Shown here one piece after another: positions 37,141-55,190 of a DNA stretch of 64,000 bases. Numbering within the stretch: the stretch's first letter is position 1; every line of letters starts with the position of its first letter. The stretch covers positions 3,143 through 67,142 of the forward strand of contig JBBRAW010000001.1 in assembly GCA_038206385.1 (NCBI GenBank), given 5' to 3'. The notes beneath the pieces were generated by a model, which was not told where the DNA came from, did not search any database, and worked only from the letters and a program-made list of their open reading frames with translations. Source of the DNA: Bacteroidia bacterium (GTDB lineage: Bacteria > Bacteroidota > Bacteroidia > AKYH767-A > OLB10). The position numbers and the translations under genes are program-made.

Positions 37141-38007
37141 ATGGATTTTATCATCACCGCAGTCATTCAAGGTATAGGCTTTTCAGCTTTAGGATTAGGA
37201 ATATTTTTAAGTTTACGTATATTTAATATTCCTGATATCACCACCGATGGAAGTTATACATTAGGAGGTGTAATCACTGCGATTTGCTTAACGCATCATG
37301 TACATCCTTTAATAACTTTGTTAGCTGCATTAGCTGGAGGAATGATTGCAGGAACTCTTACTGGATTAATTCATACACGCTTAAAAGTAAATGCACTGCT
37401 TTCAGGAATTTTAGTAATGACTGCACTCTACTCTATCAATTTAGCGATACTCGGACGATCGAATTTACCACTCATTAATGTTAATGATTATTTTGGATTG
37501 CTACCGATTGCAAATTCTTTCTTACAACAATTTATTTCAGTATTACTTTTTGTTACTACGCTTTCAGTATTAATTGCATGGATTTTACGAACTGATTTTG
37601 GTATTGCAATGCGTGCAACAGGAAATAGTGAAGCGATGGTTCGTGCAATGGGAGTAAACACAAATAAGATGAAAATTATTGGTCTTGCTATTGCGAATGG
37701 ATGCACTGCCCTTAGCGGATATTTGCTAACGCAGTACCAAGGTTTTGCAGATATCAATATGGGAATTGGAATTGTTATTTCTGGATTAGGATCGGTGATG
37801 GTTGGAGAAACATTATTCAAACCACTTATAAGAAGAGGAATATTTTTTCATCTCCTTGCAATAATTTTAGGATGCTTAACATTTCGATTGATACTCGCAT
37901 TAGCATTATCGGCAGGAATAGATCCAAATTATTTACGATTGATAACGGCACTGATTGTATTATTGATTGTATCATTAGGAAATCTCAAATCATTGAAACA
38001 AGTATGA
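37141..38007 (+). CDS. ABC transporter permease (BPD_transp_2-type)
   Basis: 288 aa with 8-9 TM helices. Starts 8 bp after the SBP gene. Stop overlaps the ATPase start (ATGA). Confidence 0.7.
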   Translation: MDFIITAVIQGIGFSALGLGIFLSLRIFNIPDITTDGSYTLGGVITAICLTHHVHPLITLLAALAGGMIAGTLTGLIHTRLKVNALLSGILVMTALYSINLAILGRSNLPLINVNDYFGLLPIANSFLQQFISVLLFVTTLSVLIAWILRTDFGIAMRATGNSEAMVRAMGVNTNKMKIIGLAIANGCTALSGYLLTQYQGFADINMGIGIVISGLGSVMVGETLFKPLIRRGIFFHLLAIILGCLTFRLILALALSAGIDPNYLRLITALIVLLIVSLGNLKSLKQV

Positions 38008-38750
38008 TAGAGATTACTAATTTACATCTCACTTTTAATAAAGGAGAAACCAACGAAATAAATGTTCTTCGAGGTATTAATCTTGAAATAAAAGCGCAAG
38101 AATTTGTAGTACTTGTGGGTGCTAATGGTTCTGGGAAATCATCTTTACTCAATGCACTTGCAGGAACAGTGAGTCCCGATAAAGGAAATATTAAACTTGA
38201 AGGAAAAGATATTACTCATTTAAAAGAATACGAAAGAAGCAAATTTCTAAGTCGTATTTTTCAAAATCCTTTACAAGGTACTGCACCCGATTTAAGTATT
38301 CTTGATAATTTTCGATTGGCATCTTTACGCACAAAATCAAAGCAACTCAACATCGGAACTGATCAAAATTTTAAGGATTTAGTTCGTGAGAAAATTCGCA
38401 CATTAAATTTAGGTCTGGAGGATAAGTGGCAACAACCTATGGGAACACTTTCAGGAGGTCAGCGACAAGCATTAACCTTATTGATGGCAACGATGGACGA
38501 TTGTAAAATCATGCTCTTAGATGAACCCACAGCAGCTTTAGATCCAAAGTCGTCAGCAATCGTAATGGAAAAAGCAAATGAAATTATTTCTACGAATCAA
38601 CTCACCGCACTGCTTATCACACATCAACTAAAAGATGCAATAAAATATGGCAATAGAATTTTAATGATGGAAGAAGGTGTGATCAGTAAAGATATTCGCA
38701 ATGAAGGAAAAGTAGCTTTGAAAATGGAAGAATTGTTTGGGTGGTTTTAG
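38004..38750 (+). CDS. ABC transporter ATP-binding protein
   Basis: Walker A GANGSGKSSLLNAL, signature LSGGQRQAL, Walker B IMLLDEPTAALD. Start taken at MIEITNLHLTF (38004) rather than the longer track ORF that overlaps the permease. Confidence 0.8.
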   Translation: MIEITNLHLTFNKGETNEINVLRGINLEIKAQEFVVLVGANGSGKSSLLNALAGTVSPDKGNIKLEGKDITHLKEYERSKFLSRIFQNPLQGTAPDLSILDNFRLASLRTKSKQLNIGTDQNFKDLVREKIRTLNLGLEDKWQQPMGTLSGGQRQALTLLMATMDDCKIMLLDEPTAALDPKSSAIVMEKANEIISTNQLTALLITHQLKDAIKYGNRILMMEEGVISKDIRNEGKVALKMEELFGWF

Positions 38751-38762
38751 ATTTAAGTTGTT

Positions 38763-38817
38763 TTGAACAGGATTTTTAGGATTACTTTGATTTGCAGGAT
38801 TAAAAAAAGTTGAACAG
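38763..38817. repeat. Single copy of a 48-bp repeat unit (TTGAACAGGATTTTTAGGATTACTTTGATTTGCAGGATTAAAAAAAGTTGAACAG)
   Basis: Near-identical to two tandem copies at 40993..41094. Together they bracket the T9SS-cargo / RES-Xre segment. Confidence 0.7.
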
Positions 38818-38906
38818 TTCCCAACTTATCACAATGTCGCACGCCATAATTTTAAAGTATACAAGATTTCGTGCGACGCATTTTGCAAAGGTGTGCTGCA
38901 AGCCGC

Positions 38907-39839
38907 TTAATTTAAAATTATTTTTCCTCTTAAATTTTGCAACCCTTGGCTCAAACAATATAAATACAATCCGCTTTGAAAACCATCGAGACTTATACTA
39001 CTTTCACTATTTAAGATTACCGAAGAATAAACAATTCTGCCACTTGAATCGAAAAGTTGAAGCAAAGCTACTTGCTGTTTATCATTTATATTTACCTTAA
39101 TACTGTTACCAACTTGATGAATCGTAAACGGCATGTCGGAATTACTATTATCATTTAAACCAACAACGCCAAAACAATCCCCGCTTGAAGTTGAATAGAT
39201 ATAATTTCCATCATCTTTCACACATGATAAATTGGTAGCAGGTCCTCCAATTTGTAGCACTAGTATATTTGTTAATCCTCCCACATCACCAATAGATTCA
39301 ATATAACTATTTCCATCGTGTAGATAAAATATTTTACCATATCCTGTAATTAAAGGATATTGCCCGATACTATCTACAGTTAAAGTGTTCGGACCTTGAG
39401 TTGTAAATGGAGTACTAAACGTGTCGCCAACATTCAAAGAGAAATCAAAGAGTAAATGCTCAACAGTGTCAATAGCTAAATCAAGAAGATATACCTTTCG
39501 AATTAAAGTATCTTCTCGCATAAATTGAGATGATGATATAGATCCGCCATTCGCGCAATTCCCCGTTGTGTCAACTGCAAATGGTTGGCAAAAAAGTCCA
39601 CACTGGCATAAACTTATGACACCACAAGATGCTATTTTTTGATATGTTATATTTTGAATAATTGTGTCACCAAAAAAATATTGCTGCCTCCCACCTGTTG
39701 TGTAACAAAGTGCTGTTGGATCAAGATCCATTAAAGTCCAAAATTTGTTCGATTTTATTAAAGGATGATACGCTTGTCCTTCAACAGCACTGCTAATAAA
39801 ATAAAAAAATGTTGCTGTAATAAAGATTAGTGATTTCAT
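38907..39839 (-). CDS. Secreted hypothetical protein with T9SS CTD
   Basis: Signal peptide MKSLIFITATFFYFISSAVEGQA (start at second Met). C-terminus ...LFDSSGRIVYSSVILNSESSISLDGFQSGLYLYCLSQGLQNLRGKIILN. Confidence 0.65.
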   Translation of the reverse strand: MKSLIFITATFFYFISSAVEGQAYHPLIKSNKFWTLMDLDPTALCYTTGGRQQYFFGDTIIQNITYQKIASCGVISLCQCGLFCQPFAVDTTGNCANGGSISSSQFMREDTLIRKVYLLDLAIDTVEHLLFDFSLNVGDTFSTPFTTQGPNTLTVDSIGQYPLITGYGKIFYLHDGNSYIESIGDVGGLTNILVLQIGGPATNLSCVKDDGNYIYSTSSGDCFGVVGLNDNSNSDMPFTIHQVGNSIKVNINDKQQVALLQLFDSSGRIVYSSVILNSESSISLDGFQSGLYLYCLSQGLQNLRGKIILN

Positions 39840-39934
39840 ATTTTTTTTTAAAATGGTGTACGGTGTTCCTATGCGTTGCGCCACTACCATAATTTAAAAG
39901 TAAGCAAAAATTTCGTTTACCGACTGCTTTAGTT

Positions 39935-40390
39935 TTATCTTTTTATTAAGCGAACATCAAAATGAAATTTGATGCGATCTAAAACTTTCACCTTGCTAAA
40001 ATCAAGATGATTACAATTTAGAATAATGATATGTGAGTTAGTTATTATGCAACTTGGAACTTTAAGAGCAATTGCTTCGCCTTTTAAAATCCAATTTTCT
40101 CCTAAGTCTGATAGCTTAATTGGCGCAGGATACTCGGTCCAATTAATTGGAAGATCCGGAATTTGAAATTCAGTAATTGAATCATCTGGTATTTCGATAG
40201 TCAATAAATCTAGATCAGGTACGATCATAGGCGTTGCATGAACAAGTGTTTCAAGTAACGCAATTTCTTTCGACATACCCGTATATAATACTGGTGTTCC
40301 AGACTTATTCCATCTTCCAGGAAATTTGGCAGCTCCCGTTCCCTTCATATCTGCCGCAAACTTAGTTTTAGTAATTCTATAAACTATCAT
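39935..40390 (-). CDS. RES-domain toxin (RES-Xre toxin-antitoxin family)
   Basis: MIVYRITKTKFAADMKGTGAAKFPGRWNKSGTPVLYTGMSKEIALLETLVHA matches the RES N-terminal consensus (YR......A..G.GA...GGRWN..G...vYta.s..lAlLE.lvH). Start ATG is 1 nt after the antitoxin TAG. Alternative starts lie up to 24 codons upstream. Confidence 0.8.
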   Translation of the reverse strand: MIVYRITKTKFAADMKGTGAAKFPGRWNKSGTPVLYTGMSKEIALLETLVHATPMIVPDLDLLTIEIPDDSITEFQIPDLPINWTEYPAPIKLSDLGENWILKGEAIALKVPSCIITNSHIIILNCNHLDFSKVKVLDRIKFHFDVRLIKR

Positions 40391-40391
40391 G

Positions 40392-40850
40392 CTAACTATA
40401 TACTCCATATTCAATCCGGCCAAGCAAATCTCTAACTTTAGATATGCCATTAGGAATGTCAAGTAATTCCTTTGGCTCTAATTCTCCTAATGCAATATTT
40501 GGTAAATTAAGCCACTTGAAAAAGTTATCCTGACTTTGAAAAACTTCAGTCCCGTAAAGAAAAAGAGATGTTAATTCAAAAAGCTGAACGGAATAATTTC
40601 TATCTAACGTTTTACTTGCTTTTATCCACCTATAAATGGTAGGAGAAGAAATATTTAATAATTCTGCAACAAAATCTCTTGGAAAATTGAAATGAGTTTT
40701 AAAATTATCGATAATGTGAGCATCAACTCCTTGAGTAGCTATGGTTATGAAATCAAAGGCACTTTCTATATCTGATTTTATGTACTTTCTACCTAAAATA
40801 TCCTTGAGAGAATTATAGTGGTCAACCGCAGATGTATCTTTCGTTCTCAT
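40392..40850 (-). CDS. Xre-like antitoxin of the RES-Xre pair (DUF2384 / MbcA/ParS-like toxin-binding domain)
   Basis: C-terminus GELEPKELLDIPNGISKVRDLLGRIEYGVYS matches the conserved ...LL.t..G...V...L.RIEyGVY end of RES-associated antitoxins. Helix-turn-helix-like segment FVAELLNISSPTIYRWIK. Directly upstream of the RES gene. Confidence 0.8.
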   Translation of the reverse strand: MRTKDTSAVDHYNSLKDILGRKYIKSDIESAFDFITIATQGVDAHIIDNFKTHFNFPRDFVAELLNISSPTIYRWIKASKTLDRNYSVQLFELTSLFLYGTEVFQSQDNFFKWLNLPNIALGELEPKELLDIPNGISKVRDLLGRIEYGVYS

Positions 40851-40992
40851 TTGATAATATATTTTATCATTTAACGAATATACAAATAGTTTGTTGCAAT
40901 GTTGGTTTTTTAAAAAAAAATTATTAAAAATGGTTTTTAGCTGATCGCTACATTGTATTCTGAAATTTAAATGTAAATAAAAAATTTGCAGT

Positions 40993-41094
40993 CTTGAACA
41001 CGATCAAGGGATTACTTTGATTAACAGGATTAAAAAAAGTTGAACACGATTAAAGGTATTACTTTGATTAACAGGATTAAAAAAAGTTGAACAG
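40993..41094. repeat. Two tandem copies of the 48-bp repeat TGAACACGAT[C/T]AAGG[G/T]ATTACTTTGATTAACAGGATTAAAAAAAGT
   Basis: Direct sequence comparison with 38763..38817. Degenerate fragments (caggattgataggattaaagg) follow to ~41145. Confidence 0.75.
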
Positions 41095-41159
41095 TTTCGA
41101 TAGCTATCGGAATAAGGGACTAACAGGATTGATAGGATTAAAGGTTTGGTGTACTTTAA

Positions 41160-41800
41160 ACTAGAACTATTTATTATTCACTTATTACTTTTTTGATTGC
41201 TAATTATGTTGACAAAAACTAAAAATTTCTACCTTTTCAGAATTGCAGCCTCTACGTGCAACCAACTACAAACGACTATAAATAATTAATCTTCGGTATT
41301 TGATTTTTTTGTTGCTAGTTTAGTTGACAATAGACAAATAATTTTCTTCCATTTCAAAATTATAACAACTATGTACAAACAAGTACAAACGACTATAAAT
41401 ATTTAATCTTCGCTATTCATTTTTCTGTTTGCTAATTTAGTTGACAAAAGCCAAAAACTTCCAACTTTATAAAAACATCGTAACCAAGTACAAACGAATA
41501 CAAACGACTATAAATAATTAATCTTAGCTATTTGATTTTTTGTTCGCTAATTTAGTTGACAAAAACCAAATAATTCCGCCTCAATAAAAACATCGCAACC
41601 AAGTTCAAACGACTATAAATATTTAATCTTCGCTAATCATTTTTCTGTTTGCTAATTTAGCTGACAAAAACTAAATTTTTCCCAATAATAAAAGTATGTG
41701 AACAAAAAACAAACAACTACAAACGACTATAAATAATTAATCGTTATTATCCGATTTCATTTTGCTAATTTACTAGAAAAAAGTCAAAAATTATAAATGA
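41160..41800. repeat. Tandem array of ~5.5 copies of a 105-117-bp unit in a non-coding gap
   Basis: Units begin CAAACGACTATAAATA[A/T]TTAATCTT at 41269, 41386, 41501, 41606 and 41720, with a partial copy at ~41190. Each has a conserved ~65-bp half (…GCTAATTTAGTTGACAAAA) and a more variable ~45-bp half (…CCAAATAATT.C...AATAAAAACATCG.AACCAAGTA). No ORF spans it. Confidence 0.85.
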
Positions 41801-41880
41801 ATTAAGTACATTCAACACTAAAAATGAAATCGCTTTTTAAAATGATTTGTTCCAAAGTAATCGCTGTTAAGTTAAGTTTT

Positions 41881-42951
41881 CTAATAATATTCATAATAAT
41901 ATTGTGTTATTCTTCGATTCAAAACTGCTTTTTTGTCCGCGTCAATAAGGTGTGTAAATTTTCTTTCTTCTAAAAGATTTTCATCTTTGTTATAAAAATA
42001 TAATATTGTTTGAATTGGTTCTCCATTTTTTCCAACAATTAAAAATTCTTTCAAATTTCCTTTTTTGTCATAAAGATAAAGTGATTGTTGCGAAAGTTGT
42101 GTTGAGTCTCCGCTACTATCATTATAAAGCTCTTCTGTTAATTTCTGTCTCTGTTTATTGAACCCATAATTATAAATAATGAAATTTATCCCGTCGCGAT
42201 ACCAACTTTGATATATCAAGGAGTCCATTACATCATATTTGTAAAGTCTTTTATATTGAGAAACCACTCTGTCGTTTTTATATGATGCTTCTGTTTTTTG
42301 AATTTTTAATCCTTTTTTATTGTAGTAAACTCTTTCAACATAAGAATTTTTAGAACTATTACTATTTCTGCAACTTATAATTTCTAATTGATTATTGCTA
42401 TTGTAGGTATAGGTACACTCATAAATGTTTTTGTCATTTAATTCTTTAGTGGATTTAAGTTTACCATTTTTGCCGTATTCATAAAATACTCTTGTAGGAA
42501 TCGGAATTTCTATTTCATTTCCATTTTTATCTATATCGTAGCTGTAAGTACTTGTTGATTTTCTTTCAACAATATTATCGTTCAAATATTTTGCAGTATC
42601 AATTTCCATCTTCGGTTTAAATACGTCTCCAATTCTTTCATCAATCTTCAATAAAGTATCGCCCAACAGCTTTTGATAATGATGTTCGAAAAGTCTTGTC
42701 GAGTCGATTGCATACTTTCGCATTTCAACGAACTGACCTAATGTGTCAAAATATTGGATTACTTTATCTTCAAAAACCAAGCTATCTGACGAAAAATAAT
42801 TATAAATAAAGGATCTTGATATTATTGATTTTATTATTCTTTGCTTACTATGTTTCGTATCTTTTTTACTCTTTTTATAAGTAGTGTCCGATCCGTTTTG
42901 ACAAGAGAAGATAAAAATTGCCAAAATGAATATTATGTTGCGTTGTCCCAT
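41881..42951 (-). CDS. Hypothetical lipoprotein with Tyr/Asn/Lys-rich repeats
   Basis: Likely start at MGQRNIIFILAIFIFSCQNG (lipobox). Repeated Y.Y..KG.L.. segments (YYNKKGLKIQ, LYDKKGNLKEF). No catalytic motif. Confidence 0.5.
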   Translation of the reverse strand: MGQRNIIFILAIFIFSCQNGSDTTYKKSKKDTKHSKQRIIKSIISRSFIYNYFSSDSLVFEDKVIQYFDTLGQFVEMRKYAIDSTRLFEHHYQKLLGDTLLKIDERIGDVFKPKMEIDTAKYLNDNIVERKSTSTYSYDIDKNGNEIEIPIPTRVFYEYGKNGKLKSTKELNDKNIYECTYTYNSNNQLEIISCRNSNSSKNSYVERVYYNKKGLKIQKTEASYKNDRVVSQYKRLYKYDVMDSLIYQSWYRDGINFIIYNYGFNKQRQKLTEELYNDSSGDSTQLSQQSLYLYDKKGNLKEFLIVGKNGEPIQTILYFYNKDENLLEERKFTHLIDADKKAVLNRRITQYYYEYY

Positions 42952-43081
42952 TTTGGTCAAACTTACAGATAAATTCTTATCCCAACAACTCATCAAAAAT
43001 CTATTAACAAAAAACCCAACATCAAGCAATTCACCTCACAACTTAAAAAAAATTAGTAATTAAATAATGAAACCAATTCCT

Positions 43082-44986
43082 CTAATCTTTCACAACCTTA
43101 AACACTTTCTCCCCACTCAAGTATTTTATTTTCAGAAAATAAACACCCTTAGCAAGGTTAGAAAGATCTAATTGATTAACGTATTTTTTGTTCATCACTT
43201 CATTGCCGATAATATCTGTTAAAAATATTTCTACATAATTTTCAGGTAATCCGGAAATGTTGATGATATCGTTTGTTGGATTCGGATAAACATTTAATTT
43301 TTCGGGTGCGCCGTAATCAACAATGGATGTGATGATCGTATTCTTTTCAATCAACCAAAGACCAGGATCTACGATTATCGAATCATAAATAAATGGAATA
43401 TTCACGATAAAATTTTGGCCAGAAAATGTATTGTTGAAGATGATTATTGTATCCTGCGAAGCATTTTTAAATTTTAATGCAACAGGCATTTCAAAAAATG
43501 AAACTGATGGACTTGATTGTGTTTGATTAAATGTAAGATTGACAACTGCTCCCGTTTGTGATGCACTAATCTGATAATTCGGATATCCTTCTCCAGTAAA
43601 CCAATCATTAAAATACCACGTTAAATTCTGACCATAAGAAGCTTCGAAATGTGATTTTAAAAGAGCTGTTGTTGCAAAGCCATACGCACAACTTACATCT
43701 GCCAAATAATTATTTAACGCAGCAAAAAATGCTGAATCACCAATGATCCATCTAAGCTGATGTAAAATCATAGCACCTTTCGAATACGTTAAGCGAGAAT
43801 CAAAAATTCTATTTACCGATGTTGTATCATCACACCAAACAGAACCACCAGGCTGTGAAAGTATGCTCCCTAATCTCTGAGATTTAAATGGAATCCAATA
43901 TTGCTGATTAAACATGTGCTCATAAGTAAGTGCGGAAAGATATGTTGCGAATCCTTCGTTCAACCAGATGTCGCGCCAACTTGCACAAGTTACTTTATCA
44001 CCAAACCAATGATGCGCGAGTTCATGTGCAATTAACTCATGTCCGAAGCCGCCTACGAAAGTCATTGTTTGATGTTCCATACCGCCACCCCAACCAAATT
44101 GCGCATGACCATATTTTTCATTCTTGAAAGGATAAATACCAAACAAGGAATCATACAATTGCATCACTGGAACAATGTCTAAAGTTTGTGGAACTGCAGA
44201 TGCAGAATCTTCGGGATAAACATAATTCTGTACTTCAACAGTATCATTACCGAAAGGAACAAAATTCGAATAGCGTGCATAATTTGTTACTGCAGCGCAA
44301 ATCAAATAAGTTGCAATAGGGTAACGATGTTTCCAATGGTAAATCATATCGGATCCACTCACAATTTCTTCTACCAATTTTCCATTACTTGCAGCGCGAT
44401 ATGCAGATGGCGTTTGAATATAAACATCAATAGAATCTGCCTTATCCGTTAAACCATTTTTACATGGCCACCAATCACTAGCACCATACGGTTCGGATAA
44501 TGTCCAGATGATTGGCTGAGAAGCATGAGCGTTTTTTATGAATGAACCAAAACCAGATGAAGGCGGAGTTCCTTGATAATAAATTGTAACGGAATCTAAA
44601 TTATTAATTGGAATTGTTGCAGGAAGATTTAATGTTAACACATCTCCATTTTGTGAATGAGTGATCAAACTTTGATGATACTTAACTGAATCAACTGTTA
44701 AATTAATACTTAAATCAAAATTAATTGCATTGAATGAATTTGTATTTACAACAAAATAAGAAGTAACACTTCCAGATACGTAAAGTACATTTGGATCAAT
44801 GTTCCAATGACAATTATAATATTTTACGTCGAAGTCGGTATTAGCAGCAACTGCTTTACGATTTAATTTTCCTAAATGCGCATCACGTTCTGTGTTTGCA
44901 ATTTGCATAAATTCTTTATCGGAAAATTGTTGCGCACTAACAAAGTTTGCGATGAAAATAAAGGTGAGAAGTAACACTTTTTTCAT
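43082..44986 (-). CDS. M1-family zinc aminopeptidase with T9SS C-terminal sorting domain
   Basis: Signal peptide MKKVLLLTFIFIANFVSAQQ. Gluzincin motif HELAHHWFGDKVT...WLNEGFATY (HExxH-x18-E). GGMEHQTM exopeptidase motif (GxMEN variant). C-terminal CTD KLNVYPNPTNDIINI...KGVYFLKIKYLSGEKVFKVVKD. Confidence 0.8.
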   Translation of the reverse strand: MKKVLLLTFIFIANFVSAQQFSDKEFMQIANTERDAHLGKLNRKAVAANTDFDVKYYNCHWNIDPNVLYVSGSVTSYFVVNTNSFNAINFDLSINLTVDSVKYHQSLITHSQNGDVLTLNLPATIPINNLDSVTIYYQGTPPSSGFGSFIKNAHASQPIIWTLSEPYGASDWWPCKNGLTDKADSIDVYIQTPSAYRAASNGKLVEEIVSGSDMIYHWKHRYPIATYLICAAVTNYARYSNFVPFGNDTVEVQNYVYPEDSASAVPQTLDIVPVMQLYDSLFGIYPFKNEKYGHAQFGWGGGMEHQTMTFVGGFGHELIAHELAHHWFGDKVTCASWRDIWLNEGFATYLSALTYEHMFNQQYWIPFKSQRLGSILSQPGGSVWCDDTTSVNRIFDSRLTYSKGAMILHQLRWIIGDSAFFAALNNYLADVSCAYGFATTALLKSHFEASYGQNLTWYFNDWFTGEGYPNYQISASQTGAVVNLTFNQTQSSPSVSFFEMPVALKFKNASQDTIIIFNNTFSGQNFIVNIPFIYDSIIVDPGLWLIEKNTIITSIVDYGAPEKLNVYPNPTNDIINISGLPENYVEIFLTDIIGNEVMNKKYVNQLDLSNLAKGVYFLKIKYLSGEKVFKVVKD

Positions 44987-48437: not shown

Positions 48438-48535
48438 AAATTAAGAATTAAAAATTAAGAATGCAGAATTAAGAATCTAGAATTAAGAGTGAAGAATGCA
48501 GAATTAAGAATGCAGAATGCAGAATTAAGAATGTG
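48438..48535. repeat. Imperfect tandem repeat of a ~14-bp unit (GAATTAAGAATGCA)
   Basis: aattaagaattaaaaattaagaatgcagaattaagaatctagaattaagagtgaagaatgcagaattaagaatgcagaatgcagaattaagaatgtgg lies between the comF start and the hflX stop (both minus strand). Confidence 0.8.
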
Positions 48536-54801: not shown

Positions 54802-55190
54802 TTCAACCCCTTTCAGGGTTGTATAACTTTTTCTTTCTAGCACCACATTTCATGTGGTGCTAGAAAGGTTCAACCCCTTCAGGGTTGAAAAAACACTCTC
54901 TATGAAATAACATACAACCCTGAAGGGGGTTGAAAAAACACTCTCTATTAAATAACATACAACCCTGAAGGGGGTTGAACAGCAAGAGGAGTCAACCCTG
55001 AAGGGGGTTGAACAGTAAGAGGAGTCAACCCTGAAGGGGGTTGAACAGCAGTAACGCAACATGAAATGTTGTGCCGTAAAGCGACATGAAATGTAGCGCT
55101 GCGGCACAACAAGGAAATACCATCTTTCAACCCTGAAGGGTTTGAACAGCTCAAACGCAACATTTCATGTTGCGTTTGAGAGAGTTTTTT
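54802..55190. repeat. Cluster of palindromic REP/BIME-like units of two families
   Basis: Family 1 is CAACCCTGAAGGGGGTTG or its complement CAACCCCTTCAGGGTTG, with copies at ~54804, 54871, 54915, 54960, 54994, 55026 and 55138. Family 2 is xACAT-GAA/TTC-ATGTx hairpins (ccacatttcatgtgg, caacatgaaatgttg, gcgacatgaaatgtagcgc, gcaacatttcatgttgc). Higher-order duplications include aaaaaacactctctat.aaataacatacaaccctgaagggggttga twice. The last hairpin (55150-55180) plus a T-run forms a plus-strand terminator. Confidence 0.8.

Follow-up and report, generated by a model that had tools for sequence, protein, structure and literature searches.

The GATTA-rich direct repeats of 47 nt that bracket a RES-Xre toxin-antitoxin (TA) pair in the analyzed DNA (a stretch of 64 kb, hereafter the window) are probably blocks of a lineage-specific, strain-polymorphic minisatellite or VNTR-like array inside a 4.3-kb hotspot of gene turnover, and not traces of site-specific integration. 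The locus looks fairly ordinary: these units look like strain-variable repeat pieces in a spot where accessory genes are swapped, rather than the ends of a self-mobile element.

A hotspot of gene turnover between two conserved genes

Comparison with relatives by blastn delimited a strain-variable segment between two conserved flanking genes. The flanks, the segment and its right-hand part are as follows:

38004..38750, plus strand: ABC transporter ATPase gene, the conserved left flank (Pfam ABC_tran, E=4.7e-29)
38755..43081, no strand assigned: strain-variable segment (hotspot content), 4.3 kb, from the ATPase stop to the M1 peptidase stop (blastn versus relatives)
41152..41803, plus strand: separate tandem array of 5-6 units of ~115 bp within the variable segment (TRF period 115, 4.9 copies, 72% matches)
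41881..42951, minus strand: predicted lipoprotein, AT-rich, part of the variable segment (singleton cluster)
43082..44986, minus strand: gene of a T9SS-sorted M1 aminopeptidase, the conserved right flank (Pfam Peptidase_M1, Por_Secre_tail)

Homology to L002/L010 (95.5% nucleotide identity) and to L011 (86%) breaks off at 38749-38754; in the comparison with L011, similarity is lost at 38754 and returns only at 43082, nothing aligning in between. Each breakpoint is sharp and coincides with the stop codon of a flanking gene. The M1 aminopeptidase gene is 82-96% identical at the nucleotide level in L011 and L035, and L035 (96%) diverges at ~43125, where a different gene begins; three different contents (window, L011 and L035) follow the M1 peptidase stop. 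In L011, the interval holds unrelated genes, including a ParE-like toxin pair (PF05016, 24.1 bits, cut-off 23); both the cassette and the 47-nt repeat are missing there, and housekeeping genes make up the neighbourhood within 10 kb. In L018-L022 (~77% identical), the ATPase gene directly adjoins RidA with no unit between them, which represents a true empty site. Taken at the level of alignment, the comparison shows that the interval carries unrelated gene sets in lineages with 86-96% identical flanks and is empty in more distant relatives. Constant flanking genes enclosing different or no accessory content among relatives define a hotspot of horizontal gene transfer (HGT), and homologous recombination within the conserved genes on either side would have exchanged its content.

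The first-pass annotation had suggested a recombination-prone accessory island, and this part of it is supported; however, the island is larger than had been drawn (38755-43081), reaching 2 kb past the right-hand repeat copies. The empty site predicted there, with the ATPase gene adjoining the lipoprotein gene at 41881, was not found, and the lipoprotein gene itself lies within the variable segment. This gene is missing at the corresponding position in L011 and L035, has a GC content of 0.27-0.30 versus ~0.34 for the backbone, and its product has no match in Pfam or NCBIfam. The 115-bp array has no further copy in the window by nhmmer, no Rfam match and no significant fold.

Structure and variation of the repeat units

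The repeat units and the elements next to them were located as follows:

38763-38810, with 9 nt from the start of another unit, reaching 38819, plus strand: unit A of the 47-nt repeat, beginning 12 nt past the ATPase stop
38829..38878, no strand assigned: imperfect hairpin (AATGTCGCACG ... CGTGCGACGCATT) in the gap that separates the ATPase gene from the convergent gene of the T9SS protein (read from the sequence)
40994..41095, plus strand: units B (40994-41040) and C (41041-41087), head to tail, with the start of a third unit to 41095 (TRF)
41097..41142, plus strand: 12-bp perfect palindrome CGATAGCTATCG (41098-41109; TCGATAGCTATCGG), followed by a degenerate GATTA-rich remnant at 41114-41142 (sequence reading and repeat search)

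The 47-nt unit thus occurs as one copy at 38763-38810 and as two tandem copies at 40994-41087. Direct repeats of 48 bp had been annotated at these places; the repeats are indeed present there, whereas their period is 47 nt, the B/C array being described by TRF with period 47, 2.2 copies and 94% matches. A 38-nt core, searched with at most three mismatches, has three matches in the window versus none in 100 dinucleotide shuffles, and an nhmmer profile detected no further copy of the unit in the 64-kb window. The degenerate remnant is 76% identical to a 29-nt core (repeat family D4). Within the unit, GATT motifs are spaced 8-10 bp apart (sequence reading; a TRF row with period 9). The imperfect hairpin at 38829..38878 appears in the predicted folds of both strands, and the overall z-score is not significant.

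Of 53 positions, 3 distinguish unit B from unit C and 8 distinguish unit A from B/C, compared to only 4 between A and the units of L010. Because A is nearer to the units of another genome than to B/C, the flanking copies are not the result of a recent duplication. Two properties of the unit should be weighed against the minisatellite reading. An exact stretch of 25 nt is common to A and C (CAGGATTAAAAAAAGTTGAACAGTT), and this longest exact match between them has the appearance that would be expected of a recombination core. Six copies from two lineages agree throughout the right half of the unit; conservation this strong points to a possible constraint that would not be expected of a neutral minisatellite.

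In L010, L008 and L006, units of 18, 20 and 47 nt stand in tandem right after the ATPase gene, anchored by the motif TTGAACA[G/C]GATT. For example, there are seven consecutive units of the three lengths in L010, at the left-edge position that unit A alone occupies in the window. The arrays of L006/L008 differ from that of L010, and in the 95.5%-identical relative all 9 contigs end inside the array at the left junction. The aligned arrays show a repeat array at the left edge of the hotspot in two lineages, with unit number and type varying between samples. Spacer-less head-to-tail units of ~10-100 nt, varying in number and composition among close strains, are the hallmark of minisatellites/VNTRs. 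Exact-word scans added no other genome: an exact 22-mer scan of 185,579 species genomes matched only L001 (the 95.5% relative), in one contig of its MAG, and the 11 matches of an exact 20-mer scan of JGI metagenome contigs were all chance coding matches. An exact-word scan of viral contigs gave no match, and blastn detected no similarity in plasmid and phage collections.

Genes of the bracketed segment

Between the two blocks of repeats lie only a T9SS-sorted protein, a RES toxin and an Xre antitoxin, as had been annotated; all are on the minus strand and all match family models:

38907..39839, minus strand: secreted protein with a T9SS type A C-terminal sorting domain, hereafter the cargo (TIGR04183, 30.4 bits, cut-off 23)
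39935..40390, minus strand: predicted RES-domain toxin of the ParT/MbcT type (NF049844, 151 bits versus a cut-off of 110; Pfam RES, E=2.8e-21)
40392..40850, minus strand: predicted Xre/MbcA/ParS-type antitoxin (NF049845, 102 bits versus a cut-off of 90; Pfam Xre_MbcA_ParS_C, E=8e-10)
40851..40914, minus strand: conserved upstream region of the TA operon with the palindrome TGATAA-N6-TTATCA at 40852-40869 (comparison with L034)

Both curated models of the RES-Xre type II TA family score above their cut-offs, and the two genes abut at 40390/40392. The cargo protein is a singleton in 90% clustering; its gene adjoins the RES gene also in L036, a contig 98% identical, in which Xre, RES and cargo are contiguous over 1.2 kb in the same order and which ends inside the Xre and cargo genes. 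No recombinase, integrase or transposase gene was found between the repeats or near the cassette, and no ORF of at least 25 aa with a recombinase signal was detected in 40860-41880. The segment has no rep or par gene either.

The RES-Xre pair occurs also in L034, a Saprospiraceae genome, in an unrelated context without the repeat units and without the cargo gene, the homology covering only 40914-39960 of the window. About 58 nt before the Xre start codon are nearly identical in the two genomes, compared to only 78% identity of the coding DNA, and the homology stops at 40914. The palindrome TGATAA-N6-TTATCA next to the Xre ATG is probably the promoter/operator. These alignments show RES-Xre to be an independent module, present elsewhere with its own conserved putative promoter/operator. 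The TA promoter had been placed immediately inside the right-hand repeat copies; in fact, the conserved promoter/operator stretch (40851-40914) is 78 nt away from copy B.

Origin of the bracket and alternative explanations

If the units are array blocks, the bracket would have arisen when the cargo-RES-Xre segment was placed between two of them, either by insertion into the array or by its rearrangement, and the repeat would require no function of its own. The identical cores of 22-25 nt in direct orientation could allow rare deletion of the 2.2-kb segment, an event that the TA pair would counter-select. The array is thus a possible substrate for deletion rather than a dedicated recombination site.

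The first-pass annotation had interpreted the repeats as att sites or a target-site duplication. In its present form, this explanation is that the cargo gene and RES-Xre form a small integrative cassette, with the units as its attL/attR-like sites, which is moved in trans by a recombinase encoded elsewhere, either a Xer-dependent IMEX/pdif system or another system of Bacteroidota. We consider it unlikely, even though the direct orientation and the 25-nt identical core fit it, the segment has no recombinase inside, like Xer-dependent modules, the order of Xre, RES and cargo is kept in the L036 contig, and the cassette is missing from the 86% relative. Against it, the tandem arrays vary between samples and include short forms of 18 and 20 nt, unlike att or dif sites; terminal inverted repeats are lacking; the relationship of A to the units of the other genome, closer than that to B/C, is not that of a recently duplicated site; the TA module of L034 is not bounded by 47-nt units; and the variable segment continues well past the right-hand copies. 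A dif, pdif or IMEX site, judged by dyad structure and GC skew, was rejected also because neither A nor L010 retains the weak 11-6-11 dyad of B and C, and because GC skew tracks gene orientation only and gives no terminus signal. A bolder variant is that the TTGAACA[G/C]GATT arrays are recognition sites of some host-encoded recombinase that inserts and exchanges recombinase-less cassettes at this locus, as an integron-like or Xer-like platform of uncultured Bacteroidota with the 22-25-nt right half as the crossover core; we regard it as very improbable.

Other classes of elements were considered as well. A transposon or MITE (including a BrickBuilt-like one) is not supported, as no inverted repeat pairs 38810-38910 with 40900-41000 and the flanking repeats are 47-57 nt long, not 2-14 nt. 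The sequence GTTGAAC fits the GTTRRRY motif of an integron attC site; however, its inverse GTTCAAC is missing from the region, the units are direct and not palindromic, there is no IntI gene, and folds around A are no better than those of shuffles. A 3' motif apparently shared by the cassette ends of the window and L011 (GAACAGTTCC...CAAGCCG) was unsupported by blastn.

The units might instead be protein-binding arrays that regulate their neighbours, serving as Xre operators, as the first-pass annotation had also proposed, or as a phased GATTA array (9-10 bp) for another regulator or nucleoid protein. The regular spacing of the GATT motifs inside the unit, the unchanged right half and the location of B and C upstream of the TA operon are in line with this. 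We find it quite unlikely nonetheless, because the sequence travelling with the TA module carries a palindrome of its own and reaches only 64 nt upstream of the Xre start, whereas the units begin 143 nt upstream of that start, and because copy A and the L010 array are situated at the 3' ends of convergent genes. The units neither overlap the TA promoter nor travel with the module, and the presence of RES-Xre and its 58 upstream bases in the repeat-free Saprospiraceae genome counts against an operator role.

A function of the transcribed units as RNA (a terminator, a 3'-UTR element or a small RNA) is very unlikely: Rfam gave no match at gathering and E-value thresholds, the consensus promoter/terminator scan yielded no more than shuffled sequences did, and neither copy A nor the L010 units retain the within-unit hairpin. 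The predicted fold of B-C is more favourable than that of shuffles (plus strand, z = -3.85; minus strand, -2.66); this good fold largely reflects the presence of two near-identical tandem copies. Around A the z-scores are only -0.1 to -0.4, and the terminator scan had no match there. In favour of an RNA-level role, an 8-bp stem with U7 after it can form on the minus strand, downstream of the cargo gene, where unit A meets its unique flank. As for a sponge RNA with GGA motifs of the CsrA type, Bacteroidota are reported to be without CsrA.

Finally, the bracket could be an assembly artefact through the shared repeat, or the repeats could be iteron or centromere remnants of an integrated replicon. 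The window comes from a metagenome-assembled contig (its proteins map to a single NCBI contig), and assemblies of relatives break at the units. In addition, the 18- to 20-nt tandem units beside an addiction module are similar to iterons, and the 47-nt units to the 43-bp sopC repeats. Nevertheless, this explanation is very unlikely: the longest exact A/C match is only 25 nt, below the final k-mer length that metagenome assemblers commonly use; synteny with relatives holds on both sides of the interval; L036 gives independent confirmation of the gene order inside the cassette; and there is neither a rep/par gene in the segment nor any similarity to plasmids.

Relation to known systems

Hotspots of HGT flanked by core genes are described by the general model of Oliveira et al. 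2017 (PMC5635113). The locus resembles this model in being one interval with constant flanks in which accessory genes differ or are absent among relatives, with no mobile-element genes and with breakpoints at the ends of the flanking genes; it differs in that the present comparison involves a handful of metagenome-derived relatives.

Similarly to Xer-dependent modules (IMEX and the pdif modules of Acinetobacter), the bracketed segment is small, recombinase-less and bounded by short repeated sequences, and such modules often carry TA genes. However, dif/pdif sites are single 28-bp sites of 11-6-11 structure, inverted in pdif modules, whereas the 47-nt units found here are direct and in tandem, lack a conserved dyad and are not associated with a terminus signal. 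The TA module shares with known RES-Xre systems (MbcTA and ParST; PMC6436930) the antitoxin gene upstream, abutting genes and a palindrome at the promoter. The toxin predicted here would act by NAD+ degradation or by ADP-ribosylation of Prs. The module itself has nothing unusual compared to those systems.

With minisatellites/VNTRs such as the MIRUs of mycobacteria, the array shares intergenic head-to-tail units of tens of bases that are strain-variable in number and composition. The differences are that it is split here into two blocks by 2.2 kb of genes, that it combines three unit lengths (18, 20 and 47 nt) with one 12-nt anchor, and that one locus is known, compared to the many loci of MIRUs. 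BrickBuilt, a MITE of Porphyromonas gingivalis with an internal 23-nt minisatellite (PMC4596501), belongs to the same phylum and is likewise species-restricted, intergenic and strain-variable, with spacer-less tandem units. It differs in having leader and tail subunits, inverted-repeat ends and 19 copies per genome, whereas the units here have no inverted-repeat ends and no second locus in the data examined.

If the minisatellite reading is true, the locus would add one more TA-stabilised accessory-gene hotspot and one more strain-variable minisatellite, both of known kinds. The practical value would be modest, and wider interest would arise only if the units were sites for a cassette-exchange recombinase. 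On the same reading, the array would explain why short-read assemblies break at this position in a lineage of glacier-stream Bacteroidota, and it could be used as a strain marker.

Repeat units and the genes between them

The first-pass annotation had described a 48-bp GATTA-rich direct repeat bracketing three genes; the repeat is indeed present at both places, with a unit of 47 nt (copies A, B and C). Between the repeat blocks there are exactly three genes (the cassette), and the toxin and antitoxin genes among them are a standard RES-Xre system (PMC6436930).

Features of the repeat-bracketed region and its right flank (window coordinates)
38763-38810: unit A, starting 12 nt past the ABC ATPase stop codon; the initial 9 nt of another unit come next
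Minus strand: T9SS type A sorting domain protein (cargo; TIGR04183, above cut-off)
Minus strand: RES/ParT-type toxin (NF049844, 151 bits)
Minus strand: Xre/ParS-type antitoxin (NF049845, 102 bits)
40994-41040: unit B, head-to-tail with unit C
41041-41087: unit C, followed by a partial unit, a 12-bp palindrome and a degenerate GATTA-rich remnant up to 41142
41152-41803: second tandem array, unrelated to the GATTA units (5-6 units of ~115 bp, 72% matches), between these units and the lipoprotein gene
41881-42951: lipoprotein gene of no known family
43082-44986: T9SS-sorted M1 aminopeptidase gene, next after the lipoprotein gene

The unit begins with the anchor TTGAACA[G/C]GATT and is made up of GATT motifs at 8-10 nt spacing. 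When its 38-nt core was searched for with up to 3 mismatches, the matches were the sites of A, B and C (0 in 100 shuffles), and an nhmmer profile found no further copy within the 64-kb window. Over 53 aligned positions, B and C differ at 3, A and B/C at 8, and A and the units of a 95.5%-identical relative at 4.

The 115-bp array sits in the same non-coding kilobase as units B and C, and the conserved cores of its units are ACAAACGACTATAAATAWTTAATCTTCGCTATT and TTTGCTAATTTAGTTGACAAAAAC. It was seen only here among all the window and relatives' DNA compared, and yielded no Rfam match, significant fold or conserved ORF; neither tRNA genes nor Rfam families occur anywhere in the window. At 38829-38878, where the ATPase gene and the T9SS-protein gene converge, an imperfect inverted repeat of 11-13 bp encloses a loop of 27 nt, and the weakly similar CCATAATTTWAAAGTA is found at 39887-39912, in the gap separating RES from the cargo gene.

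Content of the interval in relatives

Relatives were found via homologues of the flanking genes. L011, a relative that is 86% identical at the nucleotide level, matches the window up to 38754, 4 nt past the ATPase stop, and again from 43082, precisely the M1 peptidase stop. The intervening 2.5 kb are unrelated to those of the window, contain neither the GATTA nor the 115-bp unit, and carry a type II toxin-antitoxin pair (L011 11079-11539; 65 aa plus an 88-aa toxin matching ParE, PF05016, above cut-off) and two other genes. The same interval holds two unrelated addiction modules in sister lineages, RES-Xre in the window and the ParE-like pair in L011. L035, a contig whose right side is 96% identical, diverges within the peptidase gene, ~43 nt from its 3' end, and a third, different gene begins beyond this point. 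In relatives with ~77% identity (L018-L022), a convergent RidA gene follows the ATPase gene after 3-15 bp, and the M1 peptidase gene is missing as well; this is a true empty site, although the ATPase gene adjoins RidA there and not, as had been proposed, the lipoprotein gene.

The relative that is 95.5% identical on its left side (L001/L010 plus eight Logan contigs) carries a longer array behind its ATPase gene, made up of 18-, 20- and 47-nt units, every one beginning with the same anchor. These arrays vary from sample to sample, and all contigs stop within or just short of the array. Because of these comparisons, we regard the whole of 38755-43081 as the strain-variable unit, rather than the 2.3 kb that the repeats enclose; the repeat array is polymorphic and belongs to the left edge of this interval. 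Therefore, the earlier suggestion of a recombination-prone accessory island is supported by the relatives, but the island was drawn too small.

It should be noted that short-read contigs of three related lineages (L002-L009, L012-L017, L035) break near the edges of this interval, 12-110 nt from the ATPase stop or 67 nt past the peptidase stop; such ends fit natural populations that are heterogeneous at strain level at both edges. Glacier-fed stream metagenomes are suggested by the sample names GL65_UP and BUSI22-1.

Origin of the repeat blocks

Several results argue against a mobile cassette whose ends are the repeats. The cassette has neither a recombinase or transposase gene nor terminal inverted repeats, and A is closer to the units of the 95.5% relative than to B/C, indicating that no recent duplication upon integration gave rise to the left and right copies. 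A 1.2-kb contig from another sample has 98% identity to window 40815-39619; therefore, a close relative keeps the uninterrupted order Xre, RES, cargo gene. The toxin-antitoxin pair is also present in L034, a Saprospiraceae MAG, where it lies between unrelated genes and where similarity is limited to window 40914-39960, excluding the cargo gene and every unit. The proposed att or target-site duplication of a small integrated element thus finds no support. Its nearest remaining form, att-like sites served in trans by a hypothetical recombinase, could draw on the invariance of the unit's right half and on the exact 25-nt core common to A and C; we consider this main rival quite improbable.

The units had also been read as an operator array. 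Directly ahead of the Xre start codon, ~58 nt are nearly the same in the window and in L034, whereas the toxin-antitoxin coding DNA is only 78% identical, and this stretch, with the palindrome TGATAA-N6-TTATCA beside the Xre ATG (window 40852-40869; L034 8698-8715), is likely the promoter/operator of the pair, the palindrome being a probable autoregulatory operator. This predicted element is at least 78 nt from unit B, which speaks against the units as operators of the pair.

We find it rather probable that the units represent blocks of a minisatellite specific to this lineage, situated in a horizontal-transfer hotspot like those described by Oliveira et al. (PMC5635113). Recombination in the conserved flanks would turn over the hotspot content, with the RES-Xre and ParE-like pairs as addiction modules that may persist at such places. 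Insertion into the array, or its rearrangement, could have placed the cargo-RES-Xre segment between two blocks; the direct repeats could then mediate occasional deletion, which the toxin-antitoxin pair would counter-select. Within the phylum, the repeat has its nearest precedent in BrickBuilt from Porphyromonas gingivalis (PMC4596501), which, unlike this locus, has inverted-repeat ends and a multi-copy distribution.

Integron attC sites were rejected, since the units are direct repeats and not palindromic, as were Xer/dif sites, since the weak dyad is not conserved and the GC skew merely tracks gene orientation. RNA around unit A folds no better than shuffles; the B-C region folds better because it contains two near-identical copies, and its hairpin is not retained in unit A or in the L010 units.

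Distribution of the unit and other short repeats

In exact-word scans, in which diverged copies would be missed, the unit's most conserved 22-mer occurred in only one contig, from the 95.5% relative, among 185,579 species-representative genomes, and a 20-mer had 11 matches in JGI metagenome contigs, all in coding DNA reading G-L-K-K-V-E and none with a unit around it. Viral contigs, plasmids and phages gave no match for the unit. As far as these data reach (the 64-kb window for the source genome), the unit does not form a widespread family and is not a repeat dispersed in high copy number.

A REP-like array of palindromic units CAACCCTGAAGGGGGTTGAACAG, with periods of 45 and 33, lies between convergent genes at 54802-55180; it has the 9-mer GTTGAACAG in common with the 47-nt unit, which may be due to chance. 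Just upstream of a 231-aa phosphoribosyltransferase-like gene, a heptamer-based array (AATTAAG/AATGCAG, ~13 copies) occupies 48440-48535. The matching spot in L011 (18575-18615) has a different short GGATTACGAATTACG stretch, and the L035 contig starts at exactly this spot; together, these observations suggest that short repeats of the GATTA/GAATTA type recur in the intergenic DNA of this lineage.
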